Under the pieces are notes generated by a model, which was given only the letters and a program-made list of their open reading frames with translations, did no database searches and had not been told where the DNA came from. From NCBI RefSeq assembly GCF_013167455.1, contig NZ_CP038328.1: DNA of 64,000 nt. One strand, written 5' to 3'. The translations under genes and the position numbers were made by a program. Positions 25,186 to 48,275 of the stretch are shown here, piece after piece. Source of the DNA: Escherichia coli O157:H7 (GTDB taxonomy: Bacteria > Pseudomonadota > Gammaproteobacteria > Enterobacterales > Enterobacteriaceae). Position 1 is the first letter of the stretch, and every line of letters begins with the position of its first letter.

Positions 25186-27498
25186 ATGCCTCGCTTGTTA
25201 ACCAAACGCGGCTGCTGGATAACGCTGGCAGCTGCGCCATTTCTCCTTTTTCTTGCAGCGTGGGGAGCAGATAAACTCTGGCCTCTACCGCTGCATGAAG
25301 TCAATCCCGCACGAGTGGTCGTGGCGCAGGATGGTACGCCGCTCTGGCGCTTCGCCGATGCTGACGGCATCTGGCGTTATCCTGTAACAATCGAAGATGT
25401 TTCTCCACGTTACCTTGAAGCGCTGATCAATTATGAAGATCGCTGGTTCTGGAAGCATCCTGGGGTGAATCCATTCTCGGTGGCGCGCGCAGCATGGCAA
25501 GATCTCACTTCGGGACGGGTTATTTCCGGTGGCAGCACGCTCACTATGCAGGTTGCTCGTCTGCTTGATCCTCACCCCAAAACATTTGGCGGCAAAATTC
25601 GCCAGCTCTGGCGCGCGTTGCAACTGGAATGGCATCTGTCTAAGCGTGAAATTCTGACCTTGTATCTTAACCGCGCTCCGTTTGGCGGTACGTTGCAGGG
25701 GATCGGTGCGGCAAGTTGGGCTTATCTCGGAAAGTCGCCTGCGAATTTAAGCTATTCCGAGGCGGCAATGCTGGCGGTTTTGCCGCAAGCGCCCAGCCGT
25801 CTTCGCCCGGATCGTTGGCCGGAGCGTGCCGAAGTCGCGCGTAATAAAGTGCTCGAACGGATGGCCGTGCAAGGTGTGTGGTCCCGTGAGCAGGTAAAAG
25901 AGTCAAGGGAAGAACCCATCTGGCTGGCACCCCGACAAATGCCGCAACTGGCACCGCTGTTTTCGCGCATGATGCTCGGTAAAAGCAAAAGCGACAAAAT
26001 CGTTACTACGCTGGATGCCGGTCTTCAACGACGTCTGGAAGAACTGGCGCAAAACTGGAAAGGACGATTACCACCGCGCAGCTCACTGGCGATGATCGTG
26101 GTTGATCATACCGATATGCGTGTTCGCGGCTGGGTGGGTTCGGTTGATCTCAACGATGATTCACGCTTTGGTCATGTTGATATGGTCAATGCGATCCGAT
26201 CGCCAGGATCGGTGCTCAAACCGTTTGTTTACGGTCTGGCGCTGGATGAAGGATTGATCCACCCGGCATCACTGCTGCAAGACGTCCCCCGGCGTACCGG
26301 TGATTACCGACCTGGCAACTTTGACAGCGGTTTTCATGGCCCGATCAGCATGAGCGAGGCGCTGGTGCGCTCGCTGAATTTACCTGCTGTGCAGGTGCTG
26401 GAAGCCTATGGACCGAAACGGTTTGCGGCAAAGTTACGCAATGTTGGATTGCCGTTATATTTGCCCAACGGTGCTGCGCCGAATCTTTCGCTCATTCTCG
26501 GCGGCGCTGGTGCGAAACTGGAAGATATGGCGGCAGCGTATACCGCGTTTGCTCGCCACGGCAAGGCAGGCAAATTGCGCTTACAGCCTGACGATCCGCT
26601 GCTTGAACGGCCTTTAATGTCGTCGGGAGCGGCGTGGATCATTCGCCGGATTATGGCTGATGAAGCGCTACCCTTGCCGGATGGTGCCTTGCCGCGCGTC
26701 GCCCCACTGGCATGGAAAACGGGCACCAGCTATGGCTATCGTGACGCCTGGGCGATTGGGGTTAACGCTCGCTATGTCATTGGGATCTGGACTGGCAGAC
26801 CGGACGGCACGCCCGTTGTTGGTCAGTTTGGTTTTGCCAGCGCCGTACCATTGTTGAATCAGGTCAATAATATCTTACTGTCGCGCAGTGCTAATCTGCC
26901 GGAAGACCCGCGCCCGAACTCAGTCACTCGTGGCGTTATTTGCTGGCCGGGCGGACAGTCTTTGCCGGAAGGTGACGGTAACTGTCGCCGCCGCCTGGCA
27001 ACCTGGCTGCTGGACGGGAGTCAGCCGCCAACTCTATTACTGCCGGAGCAGGAAGGCATTAATGGCATTCGTTTCCCCATCTGGCTGGATGAAAATGGCA
27101 AACGTGTTGCCGCTGATTGCCCGCAAGCGCGACAAGAAATGATAAATGTCTGGCCGCTACCGCTGGAACCCTGGTTGCCCGCATCAGAACGTCGCGCTGT
27201 GCGCTTACCACCGGCCTCGACAATTTGCCCGCCATACGGTCACGATGCCCAGCTCCCGCTGCAGCTGACAGGCGTTCGCGATGGCGAGATTATTAAACGT
27301 TTACCGGGCGCAGCGGAAGCGACTTTGCCGTTGCAATCAAGTGGAGGGGCAGGTGAACGCTGGTGGTTTCTGAATGGCGAACCGTTAACTGAACGCGGGC
27401 GCAACGTGACCCTGCATTTGACGGATAAAGGTGATTATCAATTGCTGGTGATGGATGACGTAGGGCAAATCGCGTCAGTACATTTTTCATTTCAGTGA
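25186..27498 (+). CDS. pbpC: Penicillin-binding protein 1C (bifunctional transglycosylase/transpeptidase)
   Basis: 770 aa ORF starting immediately after yfhM stop (taaATG); glycosyltransferase motifs EDRWFW and RQLWRALQLE. Confidence 0.93.
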   Translation: MPRLLTKRGCWITLAAAPFLLFLAAWGADKLWPLPLHEVNPARVVVAQDGTPLWRFADADGIWRYPVTIEDVSPRYLEALINYEDRWFWKHPGVNPFSVARAAWQDLTSGRVISGGSTLTMQVARLLDPHPKTFGGKIRQLWRALQLEWHLSKREILTLYLNRAPFGGTLQGIGAASWAYLGKSPANLSYSEAAMLAVLPQAPSRLRPDRWPERAEVARNKVLERMAVQGVWSREQVKESREEPIWLAPRQMPQLAPLFSRMMLGKSKSDKIVTTLDAGLQRRLEELAQNWKGRLPPRSSLAMIVVDHTDMRVRGWVGSVDLNDDSRFGHVDMVNAIRSPGSVLKPFVYGLALDEGLIHPASLLQDVPRRTGDYRPGNFDSGFHGPISMSEALVRSLNLPAVQVLEAYGPKRFAAKLRNVGLPLYLPNGAAPNLSLILGGAGAKLEDMAAAYTAFARHGKAGKLRLQPDDPLLERPLMSSGAAWIIRRIMADEALPLPDGALPRVAPLAWKTGTSYGYRDAWAIGVNARYVIGIWTGRPDGTPVVGQFGFASAVPLLNQVNNILLSRSANLPEDPRPNSVTRGVICWPGGQSLPEGDGNCRRRLATWLLDGSQPPTLLLPEQEGINGIRFPIWLDENGKRVAADCPQARQEMINVWPLPLEPWLPASERRAVRLPPASTICPPYGHDAQLPLQLTGVRDGEIIKRLPGAAEATLPLQSSGGAGERWWFLNGEPLTERGRNVTLHLTDKGDYQLLVMDDVGQIASVHFSFQ

Positions 27499-27592
27499 AA
27501 TATACAAAATATTTATTAATCTAATTATGGTATTTATATTTGGAATGCATTAATAATTTAATAATCTCACGTTTTTTTAAACGACTAATTAT

Positions 27593-27606
27593 TTGATTGT
27601 TATCAG
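27593..27606 (+). promoter_or_regulatory. FNR-like box upstream of the accessory molybdoenzyme operon
   Basis: TTGATtgttATCAg matches the FNR consensus TTGAT-N4-ATCAA at 9 of 10 positions, about 56 bp upstream of the ATG at 27662, inside an AT-rich intergenic region. Confidence 0.5.
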
Positions 27607-27661
27607 CATTGTTCTCGAATAAATACGTGAATATTTATTTTTTCATTTTCGGGAACGCAAG

Positions 27662-30043
27662 ATGGATACGCCAGACGAAAAGGAACGCATTACATTTCCG
27701 CAAGTATCACGACGTAGTTTTTTACAAGCGACTTCCGCGCTTATCACTTTGCCTTTTATTTCTTCTACCGCAAAGGCGCAATCCCCAGATGCGTCGCCAG
27801 AAGTTACAGCTCCAGTAGCTGATAAAGTCGTGCCCACCTGTAGCACATTTGACTGCGGTGGTAAGTGCGATATTCGGGCGCATATGCGCGACGGCGTGGT
27901 GACGCAAATTACCACGCTTCCCGATAACGAATTGGATCCACAAATGCCGATTATGCGCGCCTGTGTTCGTGGTCGCGGCTATCGTAAATTTGTTTATCAT
28001 CCAGACCGTTTGAAATATCCGATGAAGCGGGTAGGTAAACGAGGCGAGGGTAAATTTGAGCGTATCTCATGGGATGAGGCGACGACCTTAATTGCCGATA
28101 ACCTGAAAAGGATCACGCAACAATATGGCCCAGCTTCACGTTATGTCCATGTCGGGACGGCTGTTTCTGGTGGAACATTTTCTGGCGATGCGATGGCGCG
28201 TCGGCTGTTAAATTTAACCGGTGGTTATCTTGAATATTATCACTCAGTTAGTCTGGGTAATACTGCGGCGGCCACGCCTTACACGTATGGCGTGGCCGCG
28301 AGCGGTAACTCGATGGATACTCTTCTGGATACCAAACTGGTGATTCTCTGGGGGCATAACCCAACGGAAACCATATTCGGTCACACCAATTACTATTTTC
28401 AAAAAATGAAGCAAAACGGTACACGTTTTATCGTGGTGGATCCGCGCTATTCCGACACCGTATCTTCACTTGCCGATCAGTGGATCCCGCTGTTGCCGAC
28501 CACGGACAATGCGTTGATGGACGCGATGATGTACGTCATTATCAGCGAGAATCTCCACGATAAGACATTTATCGACACATATACTCTCGGTTTTGATGAA
28601 AACTCCATGCCGGAAGGCGTACCAGCCAACGAATCGTTGGTTGCCTACCTTTTTGGCGCAAAAGATGGGATACACAAAACGCCGGAATGGGCAGAAAAAA
28701 TTACCCACGTTCCAGCACAATCCATTCGTCAACTGGCACGCGATTACGCCACTACAAAACCCGCAGCGTTGATTCAGGGATGGGGGCCACAGCGACATAT
28801 TTGCGGCGAACGCACCGCCCGAGGTTCAACTTTACTGGCCTCGATTACCGGTAACGTCGGCATCAAAGGTGGCTGGGCGGCAGGTTACGGCGGTAGTTCT
28901 AATCGTAAATTCTGCGTTGGACCAGATATGCCAGAAAATCCGGTACAAGCGAAAATCTCGATTATGAACTGGATGCAGGCGGCGGATGATGCTTCTAAAG
29001 TTACGCCGCAAGATGGGCTTAAAGGTGTCGATAAACTCGACAGTAATATCCGCCTGCTGTTCTCACTGGCAGGTAATTATCTGGCGAACCAGAACCCGGA
29101 CGTCCACCAGGCCGCGAAGCTCCTTGAAGACGAATCTAAAATAGAATTCATCGTACTCAGCGATCTGTTCATGACTCCGAGCGCGAAATATGCCGATGTG
29201 TTGCTGCCGGAAACCAGCTTTATGGAACGCTGGAATATCGGCGAAACATGGGGAACTGCGAGCTATCTTATTCTGTCAGAAAAACCGATTGAGCCGGATT
29301 TTGAACGTCGCACCGATTATGACTGGTTGCGTGACGTGGCGAAAAAACTGGGTGTCGAAGCCGAGTTCAGTCAAGGACGTGATGAGAAGCAATGGATCGA
29401 GCATATCTGGGAGCAAACTCGTCTGGCGATGCCGGATGAAAATTTGCCGGACTTCGCAACCCTGCAAAAAACACGTCGACATCTTTTCAAAAGCGCGCCG
29501 CACATCGCTTTCGAAGCAAATATTCGCGATCCGCAGAATAATCCTTTCCCGACGCCTTCCGGCAAAATTGAGATCTTCTCTAAGCGTCTTTTTGATATGC
29601 AAGATCCAGAAATTCCCGCGCTTTCGCACTATGTCCCTGCCTTTGAAGGGCCAGAAGATAAACTGACGGCGAAATACCCGTTGCAGCTCATCACCTGGAA
29701 AGGGAAAAACCGTGCTAATTCCACCCAGTATGCTAACCCGTGGCTGCAAGAAGTTCAGACGCAAAAACTCTGGCTGAATCCGCAAGATGCAAAACAGCGC
29801 GGGATTAGCGAAGGAGATAGCGTAAAAATTTATAACGATCGTGGTGTGAGCATTATCCCGGTGGAAATAATCCCCCGTATCATCCCTGGCGTAGTTGCTA
29901 TGCAGGCGGGGGCATGGTGGCAACCGGATGCACAAGGTATCGATCGCGGAGGCTGTGCCAATGTACTGAGTTCGACCCGCATTACGGCGCTGGCGAAAGG
30001 GAATTCGCATCAAACAATGCTGGTGGAGGTTGAGAAAGCATGA
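27662..30043 (+). CDS. Tat-exported Mo-bisMGD oxidoreductase catalytic subunit, DMSO reductase (DmsA/YnfE) family; substrate unknown
   Basis: 793 aa ORF; twin-arginine signal SRRSFLQ...AKAQ; N-terminal Cys cluster CSTFDCGGKCD; block ACVRGRGYRKFVYHPDRLKYPMKRVGKRGEGKFERISWDEA nearly matches DmsA as recalled; ATGA overlap with next gene. Confidence 0.85.
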   Translation: MDTPDEKERITFPQVSRRSFLQATSALITLPFISSTAKAQSPDASPEVTAPVADKVVPTCSTFDCGGKCDIRAHMRDGVVTQITTLPDNELDPQMPIMRACVRGRGYRKFVYHPDRLKYPMKRVGKRGEGKFERISWDEATTLIADNLKRITQQYGPASRYVHVGTAVSGGTFSGDAMARRLLNLTGGYLEYYHSVSLGNTAAATPYTYGVAASGNSMDTLLDTKLVILWGHNPTETIFGHTNYYFQKMKQNGTRFIVVDPRYSDTVSSLADQWIPLLPTTDNALMDAMMYVIISENLHDKTFIDTYTLGFDENSMPEGVPANESLVAYLFGAKDGIHKTPEWAEKITHVPAQSIRQLARDYATTKPAALIQGWGPQRHICGERTARGSTLLASITGNVGIKGGWAAGYGGSSNRKFCVGPDMPENPVQAKISIMNWMQAADDASKVTPQDGLKGVDKLDSNIRLLFSLAGNYLANQNPDVHQAAKLLEDESKIEFIVLSDLFMTPSAKYADVLLPETSFMERWNIGETWGTASYLILSEKPIEPDFERRTDYDWLRDVAKKLGVEAEFSQGRDEKQWIEHIWEQTRLAMPDENLPDFATLQKTRRHLFKSAPHIAFEANIRDPQNNPFPTPSGKIEIFSKRLFDMQDPEIPALSHYVPAFEGPEDKLTAKYPLQLITWKGKNRANSTQYANPWLQEVQTQKLWLNPQDAKQRGISEGDSVKIYNDRGVSIIPVEIIPRIIPGVVAMQAGAWWQPDAQGIDRGGCANVLSSTRITALAKGNSHQTMLVEVEKA

Positions 30044-30669
30044 GCCAATTTAAAGAATTTGCATCTGTCAGCGACAAACAATTAGGGTTCTTTATTGACT
30101 CTTCGCGTTGTTCGGGCTGTAAAGCGTGTCAGGTGGCCTGTAAAGACAAAAACAACCTTGAGGTTGGGCGACGTTTTCGCCGCGTGTATGAAGTGAACGG
30201 AGGTGGCTTCATCGCCACTGGAGAGGGCGGTGTGAGTCATAATGTCTTTGCTTATACCCTTTCTGTTTCCTGTAACCATTGCGCGGATCCGATCTGTACC
30301 AAAAATTGCCCGACGATGGCGATGCATAAGCGTCCCGGAGACGGTATTGTGCGCGTGAATACTGATAAGTGCGTCGGTTGCGGTTACTGCGCCTGGTCCT
30401 GTCCTTACGGCGCACCACAAATGAATGAGCAGACCGGGCAGATGTCGAAATGCGATTTCTGTATTGATCTGCAAGCTAAAGGAGAACAACCCATTTGCGT
30501 GGCAACGTGCCCGTTGGGGGCGATTAAGTTCGGCCCTATTGATGAGTTGCGTGAAAAGTATGGCGATGTCAGTGATGTGAAAGGTTTACCTGATTCGTCG
30601 ATTACGCAGCCAAATCTGGTGATTAAACCGCATCAGGGCGCGGAAAAGGAGGCGTCACATCATGCATGA
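30040..30669 (+). CDS. Four-cluster [4Fe-4S] electron-transfer subunit, DmsB/YnfG family
   Basis: 209 aa ORF with four ferredoxin Cys motifs (CSGCKACQVAC, CNHCADPICTKNCP, CVGCGYCAWSCP, CDFC...CVATCP); GGAGG Shine-Dalgarno; overlaps neighbours. Confidence 0.85.
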   Translation: MSQFKEFASVSDKQLGFFIDSSRCSGCKACQVACKDKNNLEVGRRFRRVYEVNGGGFIATGEGGVSHNVFAYTLSVSCNHCADPICTKNCPTMAMHKRPGDGIVRVNTDKCVGCGYCAWSCPYGAPQMNEQTGQMSKCDFCIDLQAKGEQPICVATCPLGAIKFGPIDELREKYGDVSDVKGLPDSSITQPNLVIKPHQGAEKEASHHA

Positions 30670-31483
30670 ATTACCGTTAATGGCTTTTACGCTGTTGTTA
30701 CAGGCATCGGTCGGTATGACGTTGTGGCTGGCGTTTCTTCATCGTCATATTTTAATCACCTCCAGCGCCCGCCCGGTTATGCGGCCGCCATTACTGTTGG
30801 CTTTTTTGGCAGGTGCCGTAGGGTTACTGATTTCTACCTTACACCTGGGTTATCCACTTAATGCGATGCATGCGCTGAGCCACTTTTCCAGTTCATGGCT
30901 GAGTCGGGAAATTATCTTTGGTGCGCTGTATCTGGCGCTATTGGGTTTATCCACATTACTGGTCATGTTACGCAAAGGCGGCTGGCAACTCCTGCTTATG
31001 CTAGCGGCAGTGGTCGGGATTGTTGATGTTTTCTGCATGGCGCAAGTTTACATCCATACGTCGATTATCACCTGGCAGCATTACAACACGCTGATTATGT
31101 TCTTAGGTACAGTGGGAATTCTCGGTTCAGCGCTGGTAGCAGTGTTTCGTATTAGCGGAATTTTGCCGCAGATTGATGCCCTGCGTAATGGATGCGTGTT
31201 GGTGATCGCTCTCCTGGTTCTGCTGCGTTTGTTGGTTCAGCCGTTGTGGATAGGGGATTTAACGGCAAATGCGATGCAGATAGCCACATTGCCACATGCG
31301 CCATTAGCGATGCTGGGACAGTTAAAACCCATACTGACACTAAGCTGGGGAATTTCCGTCATTGGGATGATGTTCTTTGCTGTCGGTGGTTGTAAAAAGA
31401 ATATCCCGGCGGCGTTATTCGGTAGCGTAATGCTAGTGGGGAGTGAAGTTATGCTGCGTTTTGTCTTTTTTAGTATCGGCTAA
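30662..31483 (+). CDS. Integral membrane anchor subunit, DmsC/YnfH family
   Basis: 273 aa ORF with about 8 hydrophobic segments; AGGAGG Shine-Dalgarno; 8 bp overlap with upstream gene and TAATG overlap with downstream gene. Confidence 0.75.
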   Translation: MHELPLMAFTLLLQASVGMTLWLAFLHRHILITSSARPVMRPPLLLAFLAGAVGLLISTLHLGYPLNAMHALSHFSSSWLSREIIFGALYLALLGLSTLLVMLRKGGWQLLLMLAAVVGIVDVFCMAQVYIHTSIITWQHYNTLIMFLGTVGILGSALVAVFRISGILPQIDALRNGCVLVIALLVLLRLLVQPLWIGDLTANAMQIATLPHAPLAMLGQLKPILTLSWGISVIGMMFFAVGGCKKNIPAALFGSVMLVGSEVMLRFVFFSIG

Positions 31484-32337
31484 TGTTAAGTCATAACATA
31501 ACGATTGGCGCGGAATGCGCGCGCCAACGCTTTCGTTTTGCAACATGTCATGCCTGTGTCGAGGCTTGCCCGGCACAGGCGCTAACGCTGACAGAAGAGG
31601 GCATAGCGGTCGACGCGGAACAATGTATTGATTGTGCGGTTTGCCAGTTTATTTGTCCGCAAGAGGCTATTCGTGGCGTTAATTCCCCTTTACGTTATTT
31701 TTGCAATCACACCCTGGTCGCACCTTTCACCACTATTGCGCCGACGCTGGAAGAACTTTTGCTATGGCATAAAGAGCAGGGGATCACAGCGATCGCGATT
31801 GATCTGAGTCAGGCGAAGGCATGGGAGCGCGCATTATTGCTGTTAAACGAATGCTTACGGCAATATGGCGAGGAAGGCTGGTCTGTGGTATCTCCACATA
31901 CCAGTGAGGTGAATGTTTCCCGGCGTCGTTTGTTCCATGTGCAGCGTGCGGATGTTCAGATGACACAAATACAACCAGGATTACGTCGGTTACATTATTT
32001 ATGGCCCCAGATTAGTGATGCTCGCCCGATGATGGATCCTCAAAAGTGTCAGCTTTGCGGTGCATGCTGGCGGGCCTGCGAGCAACAGGTCTTTTCGCTT
32101 AACGAAGGCCATTTACAAATAAATGATGCCTTGTGTAACGGATGCCAAAATTGTATTGCTGTTTGTTTTCATCAGGCAATGACCGTTGAATTGACGATTC
32201 TACCGGCAAAAATTGTGAATCTTCATGCTAATCGCAAAGTCTGTAAAACCTGTCAAAAATCCTTTCTTACTTTTCAGCAAAATGCGCAAAATTGTCTTTA
32301 TTGCCAACGTCATCGTTATGGGATGAGAACACCATAA
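31483..32337 (+). CDS. Cysteine-rich polyferredoxin-like protein (NapF/iron-sulfur maturation-like?), function unknown
   Basis: 284 aa ORF, no signal peptide; motifs CHACVEACP, CIDCAVCQFICP, CQLCGACWRACE, CNGCQNCIAVC, plus C-terminal CKTC-x13-CLYC; translationally coupled to the membrane subunit. Confidence 0.7.
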   Translation: MLSHNITIGAECARQRFRFATCHACVEACPAQALTLTEEGIAVDAEQCIDCAVCQFICPQEAIRGVNSPLRYFCNHTLVAPFTTIAPTLEELLLWHKEQGITAIAIDLSQAKAWERALLLLNECLRQYGEEGWSVVSPHTSEVNVSRRRLFHVQRADVQMTQIQPGLRRLHYLWPQISDARPMMDPQKCQLCGACWRACEQQVFSLNEGHLQINDALCNGCQNCIAVCFHQAMTVELTILPAKIVNLHANRKVCKTCQKSFLTFQQNAQNCLYCQRHRYGMRTP

Positions 32338-32477
32338 AAGTCGAGTTGTTGCTAAAACTCATTTTATTTTAAAAAAATGTTACCTTCATCAATAGTCAAC
32401 GGCTCTGTTGCTCATTATAATCCGCGCCATCTCGTACGCTGGTACAGACAACAACAGAACAATTTACAGAGGTAAAA

Positions 32478-32909
32478 ATGGCTATTGAACGTACTTTTTC
32501 CATTATCAAACCGAACGCGGTAGCAAAAAACGTCATTGGTAATATCTTTGCGCGCTTTGAAGCTGCAGGGTTCAAAATTGTCGGCACCAAAATGCTGCAC
32601 CTGACCGTTGAACAGGCACGTGGCTTTTATGCTGAACACGATGGAAAACCGTTCTTTGATGGTCTGGTTGAATTCATGACCTCTGGCCCGATCGTGGTTT
32701 CCGTGCTGGAAGGTGAAAACGCCGTTCAGCGTCACCGCGATCTGCTGGGCGCGACCAATCCGGCAAACGCACTGGCCGGTACTCTGCGCGCTGATTACGC
32801 TGACAGCCTGACCGAAAACGGTACCCACGGTTCTGATTCCGTCGAATCTGCCGCTCGCGAAATCGCTTATTTCTTCGGCGAAGGCGAAGTGTGCCCGCGC
32901 ACCCGTTAA
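32478..32909 (+). CDS. ndk: Nucleoside diphosphate kinase
   Basis: 143 aa [24 protein letters not shown] with active-site NGTHGSDS. Confidence 0.95.
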
Positions 32910-33058
32910 TAATTTCGTAAATGCCGCGTGCAAACGTGGCATCCGTGCGCCAGAATTTGTACAATGCAGCGCCCCCGGACGAGCAGCCGCTCACCGGGGC
33001 GTTTCTTTTTTCAACCCTCCAGGGGCCATAACGTGTAATAACGAGGCCGGAATAGCAT

Positions 33059-48261: not shown

Positions 48262-48275
48262 TTGATATATATCAA
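48262..48275 (+). promoter_or_regulatory. Consensus FNR box upstream of pdeF
   Basis: TTGATatatATCAA is an exact match to TTGAT-N4-ATCAA, in the AT-rich divergent region between yfgG and pdeF. Confidence 0.65.

Follow-up and report, generated by a model that had tools for sequence, protein, structure and literature searches.

The closest described counterpart of the enzyme analysed here is the Salmonella protein STM2530/STM14_3103, which a preprint names psr1A (PMC12636705). There, the Psr1A clade is described as carrying a C-x4-C-x3-C-xn-C arrangement, whereas DmsA, Psr2A and Psr3A have x3 between the first two cysteines; the Mo-coordinating serine is conserved, and the Salmonella ortholog is reported to be activated by FNR (PMC12636705). 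STM2530, investigated as a dmsA homolog, fails to restore DMSO-dependent anaerobic growth (bioRxiv 10.1101/2022.11.29.517730), and Salmonella deletion strains show normal respiration of DMSO and methionine sulfoxide (PMC12636705). Membranes containing single paralogs, psr1 among them, display sulfate-dependent oxidation of benzyl viologen. Sulfate reduction is claimed to be independent of the Mo-coordinating serine (tested for Psr1A, Psr2A and Psr3A) and, from Psr3 only, of moa, and the FS0 cluster of Psr3, said to be oxidised by sulfate, is claimed as the catalytic site (PMC12636705).

Two further systems come from E. coli itself. DmsA (b0894) has in common with the present enzyme a Tat leader with an LPF motif, an FS0 domain, the bridge arginine, the Mo-coordinating serine, B and C partners and membership of TIGR02166, but it is only 44% identical, has its first cluster cysteine (CysA) one residue later, carries tyrosines at the positions of Val164 and Val196, and has a leader h-region that is 8 residues longer. 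YnfE and YnfF, putative selenate reductases, share the subfamily, the architecture and the CysC–CysD spacing of 31, but are 42–43% identical, have x3 spacing and keep the tyrosine before the Mo-coordinating serine.

The DNA examined here (the window) is a stretch of 64,000 nucleotides from E. coli O157:H7 (NZ_CP038328.1). Positions 27662–30043 (+ strand) form a 793-aa open reading frame, and the translation of 27662–27900 matches exactly the peptide quoted in an earlier note on this DNA. The protein is 84% identical to STM2530 (P0079) over 98% of its length, has the same TCSTFDCGGKC motif and lies in the same cassette and slot (pbpC-A-B-C-polyferredoxin-ndk-rlmN-rodZ-ispG in both), so that identity, synteny and the C-x4-C-x3-C-xn-C signature all fit the Psr1A/STM2530 group. 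The two differ in their host and in that the genes are a minority trait in E. coli, while the published experiments were performed on the Salmonella protein. We consider it probable, at roughly 80%, that this frame encodes the Tat-exported catalytic subunit of a membrane-anchored, quinol-linked periplasmic molybdoenzyme of the DmsABC type, orthologous to STM2530/STM14_3103, in which C60, C65, C69 and C101 bind FS0 and the substrate is something other than DMSO.

A four-gene island between pbpC and ndk

The catalytic subunit is the first of four genes in an island with the following features.

27491–32345, + strand: four-gene island of 4.86 kb flanked by pbpC and ndk, comprising a promoter region, genes A, B and C and a polyferredoxin gene
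27593–27606, + strand: FNR-like box TTGATTGTTATCAG from a pattern scan, lying within the AT-rich spacer, 62 bp upstream of the ATG
27662–30043, + strand: catalytic (A) subunit of 793 aa, orthologous to STM2530/STM14_3103 (Psr1A) and a Mo-bisPGD member of the DMSO/selenate reductase family
30040–30669, + strand: B subunit, 209 aa, DmsB-type four-cluster ferredoxin lacking a signal peptide of its own (TIGR02951, PF13247)
30662–31483, + strand: C subunit, 273 aa, hydrophobic DmsC-type membrane anchor (PF04976)
31483–32337, + strand: fourth gene, 284-aa polyferredoxin with two 2x[4Fe-4S] ferredoxin domains and no signal peptide

The genes beside A are thus the DmsB-type and DmsC-type partners that accompany a catalytic subunit of the TIGR02166 kind, with scores of 265.8 bits for TIGR02951 (cutoff 214.1) and 84.4 bits for PF04976 (DmsC). 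The fourth gene, whose product has a conserved middle domain with SRRR and a C-terminal CxxC-x13-CxxC, stays beside A-B-C in Salmonella and Rahnella. Profile and domain searches with it returned generic ferredoxin matches only, which leaves a role as a NapF-like maturation factor as speculation.

The island takes the place of about 23 bp of the K-12 pbpC–ndk spacer, since by blastn the K-12 region matches only window positions 27112–27490 and 32346–33042. It occurs in 380 of the 5426 complete E. coli genomes (7%), always on the chromosome and adjoining pbpC, mostly in O157:H7 and its relatives; the annotation of a second O157:H7 sequence, NZ_CP066753.1, gives the same gene context. Its GC content, 0.45–0.50 against 0.55–0.57 in the upstream flank, is only modestly lower, and copies within E. 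coli are 98–100% identical. Base composition, the slot shared with Salmonella and the identity of the copies fit recent horizontal acquisition and ancestral presence followed by loss from most E. coli equally well.

The box upstream of A departs from TTGAT-N4-ATCAA at one position, and sites with at most one mismatch number only four in the 64 kb window by pattern scan. It may be a working FNR site here; the Salmonella ortholog is reported as FNR-activated (PMC12636705).

The Tat leader and the translation start

27662–27778, + strand: Tat signal peptide, residues 1–39, with RR motif, hydrophobic region and A37-K-A39

The earlier note had read the N-terminus as a twin-arginine signal peptide, and the features of the leader bear this out. 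After the motif S16-R-R-S-F-L-Q22 (27707–27727) come the hydrophobic stretch ATSALITLPFISST and A37-K-A39, the latter aligned with AHA in the leader of E. coli DmsA; together these supply a motif of the S/T-R-R-x-F-L-K type, an h-region of moderate hydrophobicity and a c-region of the A-x-A type. An LPF motif is common to the leaders of the query, DmsA, YnfE and YnfF. The pattern [ST]RRx[FL][LIV] is matched by 41 of 49 orthologs, and the exceptions inspected (P0087, SRRDML; P0119, SRRNVL) retain the paired arginines. In an AlphaFold model residues 1–17 and 24–49 have pLDDT below 50, with a DSSP helix at 17–28. On the motif, the alignment to the DmsA leader, the conservation of the arginines and this low-confidence helical N-terminus, we infer that the A subunit is exported by Tat and cleaved.

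Forms of 719, 737 and 766 aa are common among the database entries for this protein, many of them truncated at the N-terminus, an observation added by this analysis. Dozens begin at V57 (737 aa, MPTCSTFDC) or further downstream (723 and 719 aa, or shorter), which would be expected if translation truly started downstream and both the Tat signal and the cysteine group were artefacts of annotation. We give this almost no credence: an open frame runs through the 5' region from the ATG at 27662, the RR motif, the LPF motif and all four cysteines persist even in orthologs of only 79% identity, RefSeq currently annotates the 793-aa form, and the shortened versions would be missing FS0 ligands found invariantly in the family. 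A frameshift or a wrongly placed start behind this N-terminus we likewise reject on conservation.

A shifted first cysteine in the FS0 group

27839–27868, + strand: FS0 cysteine group C60-STFD-C65-GGK-C69 (CysA, CysB and CysC)
27962–27964, + strand: C101 (CysD), predicted fourth FS0 ligand, in RAC-V-R103-G

The region belongs to the Molybdop_Fe4S4 domain (PF04879), in agreement with the earlier assignment of these cysteines to an FS0 [4Fe-4S] site. The Cx4Cx3C group described there is present as C60-STFD-C65-GGK-C69, and the Cx3Cx3C pattern given for DmsA is also correct: K-12 DmsA (CTVNCGSRC), YnfE (CSVNCGSRC) and YnfF (CTVNCGSRC) are all C-x3-C-x3-C. The later cysteine placed in MRACVRGRG is C101, although it lies outside 27662–27900 and is separated from the group by 31 residues rather than about 33. 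The query therefore possesses the four cysteines of the family-typical C-x3-C-x3-C-xn-C arrangement, spaced instead as C60-x4-C65-x3-C69-x31-C101.

The difference does not stem from an insertion or deletion. In an ungapped alignment with DmsA, YnfE and YnfF, S61 shares the column of their CysA and C60 stands immediately before it. NarG provides a solved example of x3 first-ligand spacing (His49-x3-Cys53-x3-Cys57-xn-Cys92), and its DKxV....C-G/T-G-x-C core aligns without gaps, CysB, CysC and CysD corresponding; here S61 falls on His49 and C60 on Thr48, so that the query has serine where NarG has its histidine ligand and cysteine one residue earlier. NarG also differs in facing the cytoplasm and in being much larger.

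The four FS0 cysteines are conserved in 49 of 49 full-length orthologs, drawn from Salmonella, Citrobacter, Leclercia, Rahnella, Buttiauxella and others and 78.6–85% identical, as is the whole of TCSTFDCGG[KR]C, including Ser61 and the two aspartates, Asp64 and Asp70, that flank CysB and CysC. Such invariance speaks against a chance pattern. In a diverse 56-sequence family alignment C65, C69, C101 and S197 are invariant, and R103 corresponds to the conserved bridge arginine of DmsA. As far as sequence can tell, the x4 spacing is a fixed signature of the clade and no defect, and C60, C65, C69 and C101 are the most likely ligands of FS0.

The serine now occupying the old ligand position raises the question of whether it is itself the fourth ligand, or whether the cluster is [3Fe-4S], with C60 serving some other role. 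Ser61 is invariant in orthologs and sits in the column of DmsA CysA and NarG His49. When FS0 ligands of NarG are replaced, neither FS0 nor Moco is inserted, and PDB 3ir6 contains neither FS0 nor Mo-bisPGD (PMC10609526); the NarG sequence in that entry has serine at position 49. These observations indicate that serine alone would be insufficient and favour C60 as ligand. Together with the conservation of C60 in all 49 orthologs, and with a sister clade in which the Ser61 column is nearly always glycine and cysteine recurs at x4, they make ligation by Ser61 very unlikely.

A different question is whether the shift matters. An ancestor may have lost the x3 cysteine and recruited its neighbour by neutral drift, leaving FS0 and its function as they are in DmsA. 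The remainder of the FS0 motif is canonical (CGG[KR]C, RAC-x-RG), and the distance between the first two ligands is not constant across the superfamily, being x3 in DmsA and NarG and x1, x2 or x4 in relatives. Under the type I/type II classification, FdhF, NapA and PsrA-type enzymes have x2 between these ligands. Against neutrality, the TCSTFDCGG[KR]C loop does not vary among genera whose enzymes share only about 80% identity overall, which points to purifying selection on the loop as a whole, Ser61, Asp64 and Asp70 included; and the shift co-occurs with changes in the active site, which indicates that the clade is not simply a copy of DmsA. We regard neutral drift as possible, if short of probable.

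Family placement and the Bacillota sister clade

The A subunit scores 1122.2 bits against TIGR02166 (dmsA_ynfE; cutoff 777.7), residues 15–793 aligning to profile positions 1–794, which places it among the A subunits of DMSO/selenate reductases. The protein-specific models NF011566, NF041885 and NF041884 for DmsA, YnfE and YnfF stay far below their cutoffs (704.7/1600, 667.6/1675 and 692.3/1650), and in a neighbour-joining tree the orthologs form a clade with 100% bootstrap outside the DmsA/YnfE/YnfF clade. The suggestion that x4 spacing marks a distinct subclade is thereby confirmed; signature and clade are real, and both are already known from the Salmonella ortholog (PMC12636705, a 2025 preprint). 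The converse possibility, a simple paralog identical to DmsA or YnfE/YnfF in spacing and active site, does not describe a protein that is 42–44% identical to them, fails their cutoffs and has exchanged tyrosine for valine twice.

The sister clade (81% bootstrap in the same tree) consists of Bacillota enzymes fused to a TorD/NarJ domain, from Anaerocolumna, Solobacterium and Anaerovoracaceae (P0121–P0135, P0173). They resemble the query in the [VI]-P-T...CGG[KR]C context and, in some (P0121, P0124, P0173), in an x4 cysteine; P0173 is 59% identical and shares HSVSMGN. Unlike the query they lack a Tat signal; a PF02613 chaperone domain is fused to them instead, so that they are presumably cytoplasmic, and most keep the two active-site tyrosines. 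P0122 is additionally fused to a pyridine-nucleotide-disulphide oxidoreductase and P0134 to a DmsB-like ferredoxin. Across the query's wider clade the first FS0 ligand is an x4 cysteine, an x2 or x1 residue, a histidine or absent, in comparison with x3 spacing in about 68 of some 105 representatives outside the ortholog group in which the core can be recognised. That the query's sister group presumably comprises cytoplasmic enzymes with a wandering or absent first ligand is a point added by the present analysis.

Many members of the sister clade have neither cysteine nor histidine at any first-ligand position. Ligation by four cysteines is thus not obligatory in this lineage, an observation that counts against our preferred reading.

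The molybdenum site and the substrate

28151–28153, + strand: V164, aligned with DorA Tyr114 and with the tyrosine in DmsA NYGTG
28247–28252, + strand: V196-S197, S197 being the predicted Mo-coordinating serine and V196 replacing the preceding tyrosine (DorA Tyr146)

The earlier note had left the Mo ligand unassigned pending an alignment, which now settles the matter in favour of Ser197 as the predicted ligand: its aligned counterparts are the invariant serine of DmsA, YnfE and YnfF and, in Rhodobacter DorA, Ser147. The AlphaFold model of the subunit (pLDDT 90, pTM 0.88) has Rhodobacter DorA, Haemophilus influenzae MtsZ and TorA as its nearest solved folds (TM 0.79–0.84), with the Mo-coordinating serine aligned; searches of the PDB by sequence and by fold found no DmsA-type structure. 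These matches are soluble proteins lacking the FS0 domain and B or C partners, and they keep Tyr146, with DorA also keeping Tyr114, where the query has valine at both positions.

Position 164 is valine or asparagine across 11 aligned representative orthologs, and the tyrosine at the V196 position is present in both the DmsA clade and the sister clade. Judged by these alignments, both active-site tyrosines are lost in the query's clade, which is likewise a point added here. In addition, DmsA YSSAQ corresponds to VSLGN, and, compared with E. coli DmsA, five residues are missing beside the loop of the active site, after G171-T-F-S, a gap also found in YnfF. The altered active site (V164, V196 and the deletion), along with Asp64 and Asp70, suggests that the substrate is probably not DMSO.

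Sulfate is the substrate named in the preprint, and with it comes a rather different role for FS0: a site-differentiated, catalytic cluster and no simple relay, in which a loosely held first ligand leaves one iron accessible for chemistry that is independent of Mo, specifically the conversion of sulfate to sulfite. The activity of psr1 membranes, the dispensable Mo-coordinating serine and the oxidation of Psr3 FS0 by sulfate favour such a role (PMC12636705), as does the unusual plasticity of the first-ligand position in the query's wider clade. The EPR, the moa deletion, the Asn66 deletion and R105A all concern Psr3, however, and the source is a preprint that is not peer-reviewed (PMC12636705). 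Psr3 is x3-spaced, and the claimed activity therefore does not depend on x4 spacing. In the query the Mo site is intact (Ser197, the pterin-binding domains and the bridge Arg103).

Thermodynamics also stand against the claim. The SO4/HSO3 couple lies at about −516 mV and menaquinone at about −74 mV, and with these values quinol-driven reduction of sulfate without activation by ATP is uphill by some 85 kJ/mol. We therefore find a Moco-independent sulfate-to-sulfite reductase activity of Psr1A doubtful, and a catalytic FS0 of this kind unlikely in the O157:H7 enzyme.

In the assembly and electron-transfer route that we favour, drawn by analogy with DmsABC, the precursor would fold in the cytoplasm and gain the FS0 [4Fe-4S] cluster followed by Mo-bisPGD, after which the folded A subunit would pair with the B subunit, which has no signal of its own. 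Passage through the Tat system would be directed by the S16-RR-SFLQ leader, which would probably be cut after AKA39. The DmsC-like subunit would oxidise quinol, and electrons would pass through the four B clusters to FS0 and on to Mo coordinated by Ser197. For export, the cleavage site, the quinol specificity and the substrate, this scheme relies on homology. What would set this enzyme apart is a first FS0 ligand moved one residue towards the N-terminus relative to DmsA and NarG, giving a CysA–CysB loop of four residues with Ser61 on the old ligand position. Should the FS0-centred chemistry of the Psr enzymes, independent of the Mo-coordinating serine, hold for Psr1A, the part of this scheme that treats FS0 only as a relay would be wrong.

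Implications

Publication of the spacing difference leaves it little value as a matter of priority. It is nevertheless diagnostic, setting STM2530/Psr1A-type enzymes apart from DmsA and YnfE/YnfF at a glance, and together with the loss of the two active-site tyrosines it warns against annotation as a DMSO reductase. The enzyme is found in two major enteric pathogens and is reported to be FNR-induced in Salmonella, yet it has so far been given no thermodynamically credible substrate.

Correct assembly of FS0 gates Moco insertion in NarG and reportedly also in DmsA, so that this naturally occurring variation in the first ligand offers a ready-made way to probe the effect of ligand spacing on FS0 spin state, potential and maturation. 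It is conceivable, though a long shot, that the instability of the first ligand reflects a site-differentiated [4Fe-4S] cluster with a weakly held or open iron, FS0 being a substrate-binding or redox-tuning site. If so, an open-iron FS0 would provide the structural basis for the contested Mo-independent chemistry of the DmsA paralogs, or may instead mean a new class of substrate for the enzyme of O157:H7 and Salmonella.

The operon and its island

The window DNA is E. coli O157:H7 chromosome, and the peptide quoted in the earlier note is exactly the translation of the first 79 codons of the A-subunit gene, which is 100% identical in NZ_CP066753.1 and many further O157:H7 genomes. Three genes lie downstream, with reading frames that overlap or abut:

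27662-30043, + strand, A subunit, 793 aa (RefSeq 'DMSO/selenate family reductase complex A subunit')
30040-30669, B, DmsB-type four-cluster ferredoxin (TIGR02951, 265.8 bits against a cutoff of 214.1)
30662-31483, C, DmsC-type anchor (PF04976)
31483-32337, + strand, fourth gene, 284-aa '4Fe-4S dicluster domain-containing protein'
27593-27606, FNR-like half-palindrome TTGATTGTTATCAG with one mismatch, 62 bp upstream of the A-gene ATG

The fourth-gene protein lacks a signal peptide and has 16 invariant cysteines across four ferredoxin motifs, a CxxC-x13-CxxC arrangement at its C-terminal end, and, between the two ends, a conserved domain (ELLLWH...) containing an internal SRRR string with an invariant arginine. 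Its homologues are scarce (17 hits) and diverge fast, at 32-53% identity across genera compared with about 80% for the A subunit, and no named family or solved relative was found except generic polyferredoxins. Salmonella complementation constructs (STM14_3103-3101) do not carry this gene.

Homology to K-12 stops at 27490 and resumes at 32346, so that a 4,855-bp island stands in place of about 23 bp of the K-12 pbpC-ndk spacer. At 0.45-0.50, its GC content is below that of the upstream flank (0.55-0.57). Of 5,426 complete E. coli genomes, 380 have the island, invariably on the chromosome adjoining pbpC; carriers are mostly O157:H7, with copies at 98-99.4% identity in other strains. Strain ZF8-1 (NZ_CP178597.1) retains 12% of it beside pbpC, where the match overlaps an IS1A transposase, an example of IS-mediated cassette loss. 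The cassette occupies the same position in Salmonella; in Rahnella the four genes are still together at another location.

The FNR-like sequence is a lone site in a very AT-rich spacer of 163 bp and could tentatively be considered a candidate FNR box, in line with published FNR activation of the Salmonella orthologue (PMC12636705). The sole perfect FNR consensus in the window, TTGATATATATCAA, occupies 48262-48275, in the spacer that precedes pdeF (yfgF) according to the annotation of locus L001, and provided an informal positive control of the scan.

The Tat leader

The leader of the A subunit reads S16-R-R-S-F-L-Q22, then ATSALITLPFISST, then A37-K-A39. Alignment with K-12 DmsA, YnfE and YnfF shows no variation in the S-R-R triplet or in an L-P-F motif of the h-region. 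AKA39 falls on AHA of the DmsA leader, and the h-region is eight residues shorter than that of DmsA. The pattern [ST]RRx[FL][LIV] is matched by 41 of 49 orthologues, and the paired arginines are kept in both exceptions inspected. Together these features bear out the proposal that the N-terminus is a twin-arginine signal, and a Tat-type leader is accordingly predicted.

Database versions of the A subunit are often N-terminally truncated (766, 742, 737, 723, 719 aa and shorter; affecting 27662-27886, the first 75 codons), one of them being the 719-aa 'anaerobic dimethyl sulfoxide reductase chain A' entry, which has been copied widely. Entries of 766 to 737 aa lack the twin-arginine motif, with the leader partly or wholly gone, and those of 723, 719 aa and shorter also lack the first three cysteines of the cluster-binding group. 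Conservation shows the 793-aa version to be the genuine protein.

A shifted first cysteine marks the clade

The cysteine group of the A subunit is C60-STFD-C65-GGK-C69 (CysA to CysC), with CysD, C101, in RAC-V-R-G. The Cx4Cx3C spacing described previously stands; the fourth cysteine, placed about 33 residues on, is in fact separated from C69 by 31 residues and lies beyond the segment then marked. DmsA (CTVNCGSRC), YnfE (CSVNCGSRC) and YnfF (CTVNCGSRC) all have x3-x3 spacing, as the earlier note stated for DmsA. TCSTFDC aligns over SACTVNC with no gap, so the first cysteine has moved one position towards the N-terminus, leaving Ser61 in the CysA column of DmsA. Asp64 and Asp70, flanking CysB and CysC, are among the orthologue group's other differences from DmsA.

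A HMMER alignment to NarG sets DKVVPTCSTFDCGGKC over DKIVRST(H/S)GVNCTGSC, with Ser61 on His49, a ligand of the [4Fe-4S] cluster FS0, and C60 on Thr48. The best-matching NarG entry, 3ir6, has serine at position 49 and contains neither FS0 nor Mo-bisPGD; in NarG, FS0-ligand substitution blocks insertion of both (PMC10609526). Ser61 alone would thus be insufficient, and we infer that C60 is the fourth FS0 ligand.

TCSTFDCGG[KR]C followed by DIR is present in all 49 full-length orthologues examined (78.6-85% identical; from Salmonella, Citrobacter, Superficieibacter, Leclercia, Lelliottia, Rahnella, Buttiauxella and Scandinavium), each of the four cysteines being conserved in 49/49. Cys381 (28802-28804; QRHICGER, compared with QRHANGE in DmsA), which is not an FS0 cysteine, is likewise conserved in 49/49. 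In the 150 top-scoring representatives of clusters at 50% identity, x3 spacing predominates, with 68 sequences as opposed to a handful that have x4. A neighbour-joining tree (106 sequences, 725 trimmed columns) gives 100% bootstrap to the orthologue group, 85% to a Bacillota clade and 81% to their sister pairing, with DmsA, YnfE, YnfF and P0138 elsewhere in their own clade at 100%. The x4 spacing is thus a clade signature, in keeping with the distinct subclade suggested earlier, and by sequence this subclade is of the STM2530/Psr1A type.

The sister clade (P0121-P0135, P0154, P0164, P0173, P0207; also locus L008 776-3824) is the closest outgroup and consists of Bacillota molybdoenzymes without a twin-arginine leader. 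Most begin with an extension of some 200 residues that forms a TorD/NarJ-type chaperone domain (PF02613); P0131 and P0134 have neither extension nor leader, P0134 carries an extra DmsB-like ferredoxin at its C-terminus, and P0122 (Solobacterium, 1357 aa) joins a pyridine-nucleotide-disulphide oxidoreductase, TorD and the molybdoenzyme in one chain. The clade shares with the orthologue group the context [VI]-P-T ... N-C-G-G-[KR]-C. Its x3 column is nearly always glycine, and the first ligand is a cysteine at x4 (P0121, P0124, P0173), at x2 or at x1, a histidine, or absent. P0173, a TorD-fused fragment 59% identical to the A subunit, has both TCSNFDCGGKC and the orthologue group's active-site string HSVSMGN, so the Psr1A-type signature also occurs in a presumably cytoplasmic, chaperone-fused form. 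In L008 the remainder of the enzyme is on a separate 390-aa open reading frame after the P0173 gene, which is therefore split or frameshifted.

Active site and predicted fold

Ser197, the predicted Mo ligand, aligns with the invariant serine of DmsA, YnfE and YnfF; its counterpart in the 823-residue DorA chain is residue 189 (Ser147 in mature numbering), and all 56 sequences of a family alignment carry this serine. Two tyrosines kept by the DmsA clade and most of the sister clade are replaced uniquely in the orthologue group: V164 (Val or Asn in orthologues) occupies the position of DorA Tyr114 (N-Y-G-T-G in DmsA), and V196, directly ahead of the Mo-serine, that of Tyr146. The group also has VSLGN in place of YS[ST]AQ and, compared with E. 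coli DmsA, lacks five residues in the TRSWPPG region, a gap that YnfF shares. The A subunit is thus not a simple paralogue of DmsA, YnfE or YnfF, differing in both spacing and active site.

An AlphaFold2 model based on the 56-sequence alignment reaches a mean pLDDT of 90 and a pTM of 0.88, with scores of about 78-90 over the FS0 region (residues 51-100) and low confidence over residues 1-49, where a helix spans 17-28. The closest solved folds are Rhodobacter DMSO reductase (TM 0.81-0.84), MtsZ and TorA, all of which lack FS0, unlike the A subunit as predicted, followed by PcrA, EbdA, PsrA and NarG. Neither sequence nor fold search of the PDB found a DmsA-type structure.

Function

In the DorA/TorA literature, Tyr114 reportedly favours S-oxide reduction. 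Loss of its equivalent fits the missing DMSO phenotype in Salmonella, where STM2530, 43% identical to E. coli DmsA, failed to restore DMSO-dependent anaerobic growth while STM0964 and STM4305 did so; the same study also remarked on the fourth gene and on the frameshifts that Typhi and Paratyphi A carry (Cruz et al., bioRxiv 10.1101/2022.11.29.517730). The central point of the earlier note is already published for the 84%-identical syntenic Salmonella orthologue, STM14_3103, renamed psr1A by Kim et al. in a Research Square preprint (PMC12636705). These authors claim that Psr enzymes are Moco-independent periplasmic sulfate reductases acting via FS0; their mechanistic experiments concern Psr3, which has x3 spacing (PMC12636705), and so do not bear on the x4 feature. 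We consider sulfate a doubtful substrate of the Psr1A-type enzyme; judged by standard potentials, driving the reduction of unactivated sulfate with quinol is strongly endergonic.

A site-differentiated FS0 that acts as more than an electron relay in this lineage seems improbable. Most likely, the operon encodes a Tat-exported electron chain of the conventional DmsABC type, in which C60, C65, C69 and C101 hold FS0 and the substrate pocket is altered. The earlier observation is confirmed, and its interpretation supported. The x4 feature itself had been described; added here are the residue-level nature of the first-cysteine shift, the loss of two active-site tyrosines, a TorD-fused sister clade whose first ligand is unstable, how far the E. 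coli island extends and where its borders lie, and the prevalence of N-terminally truncated database entries.
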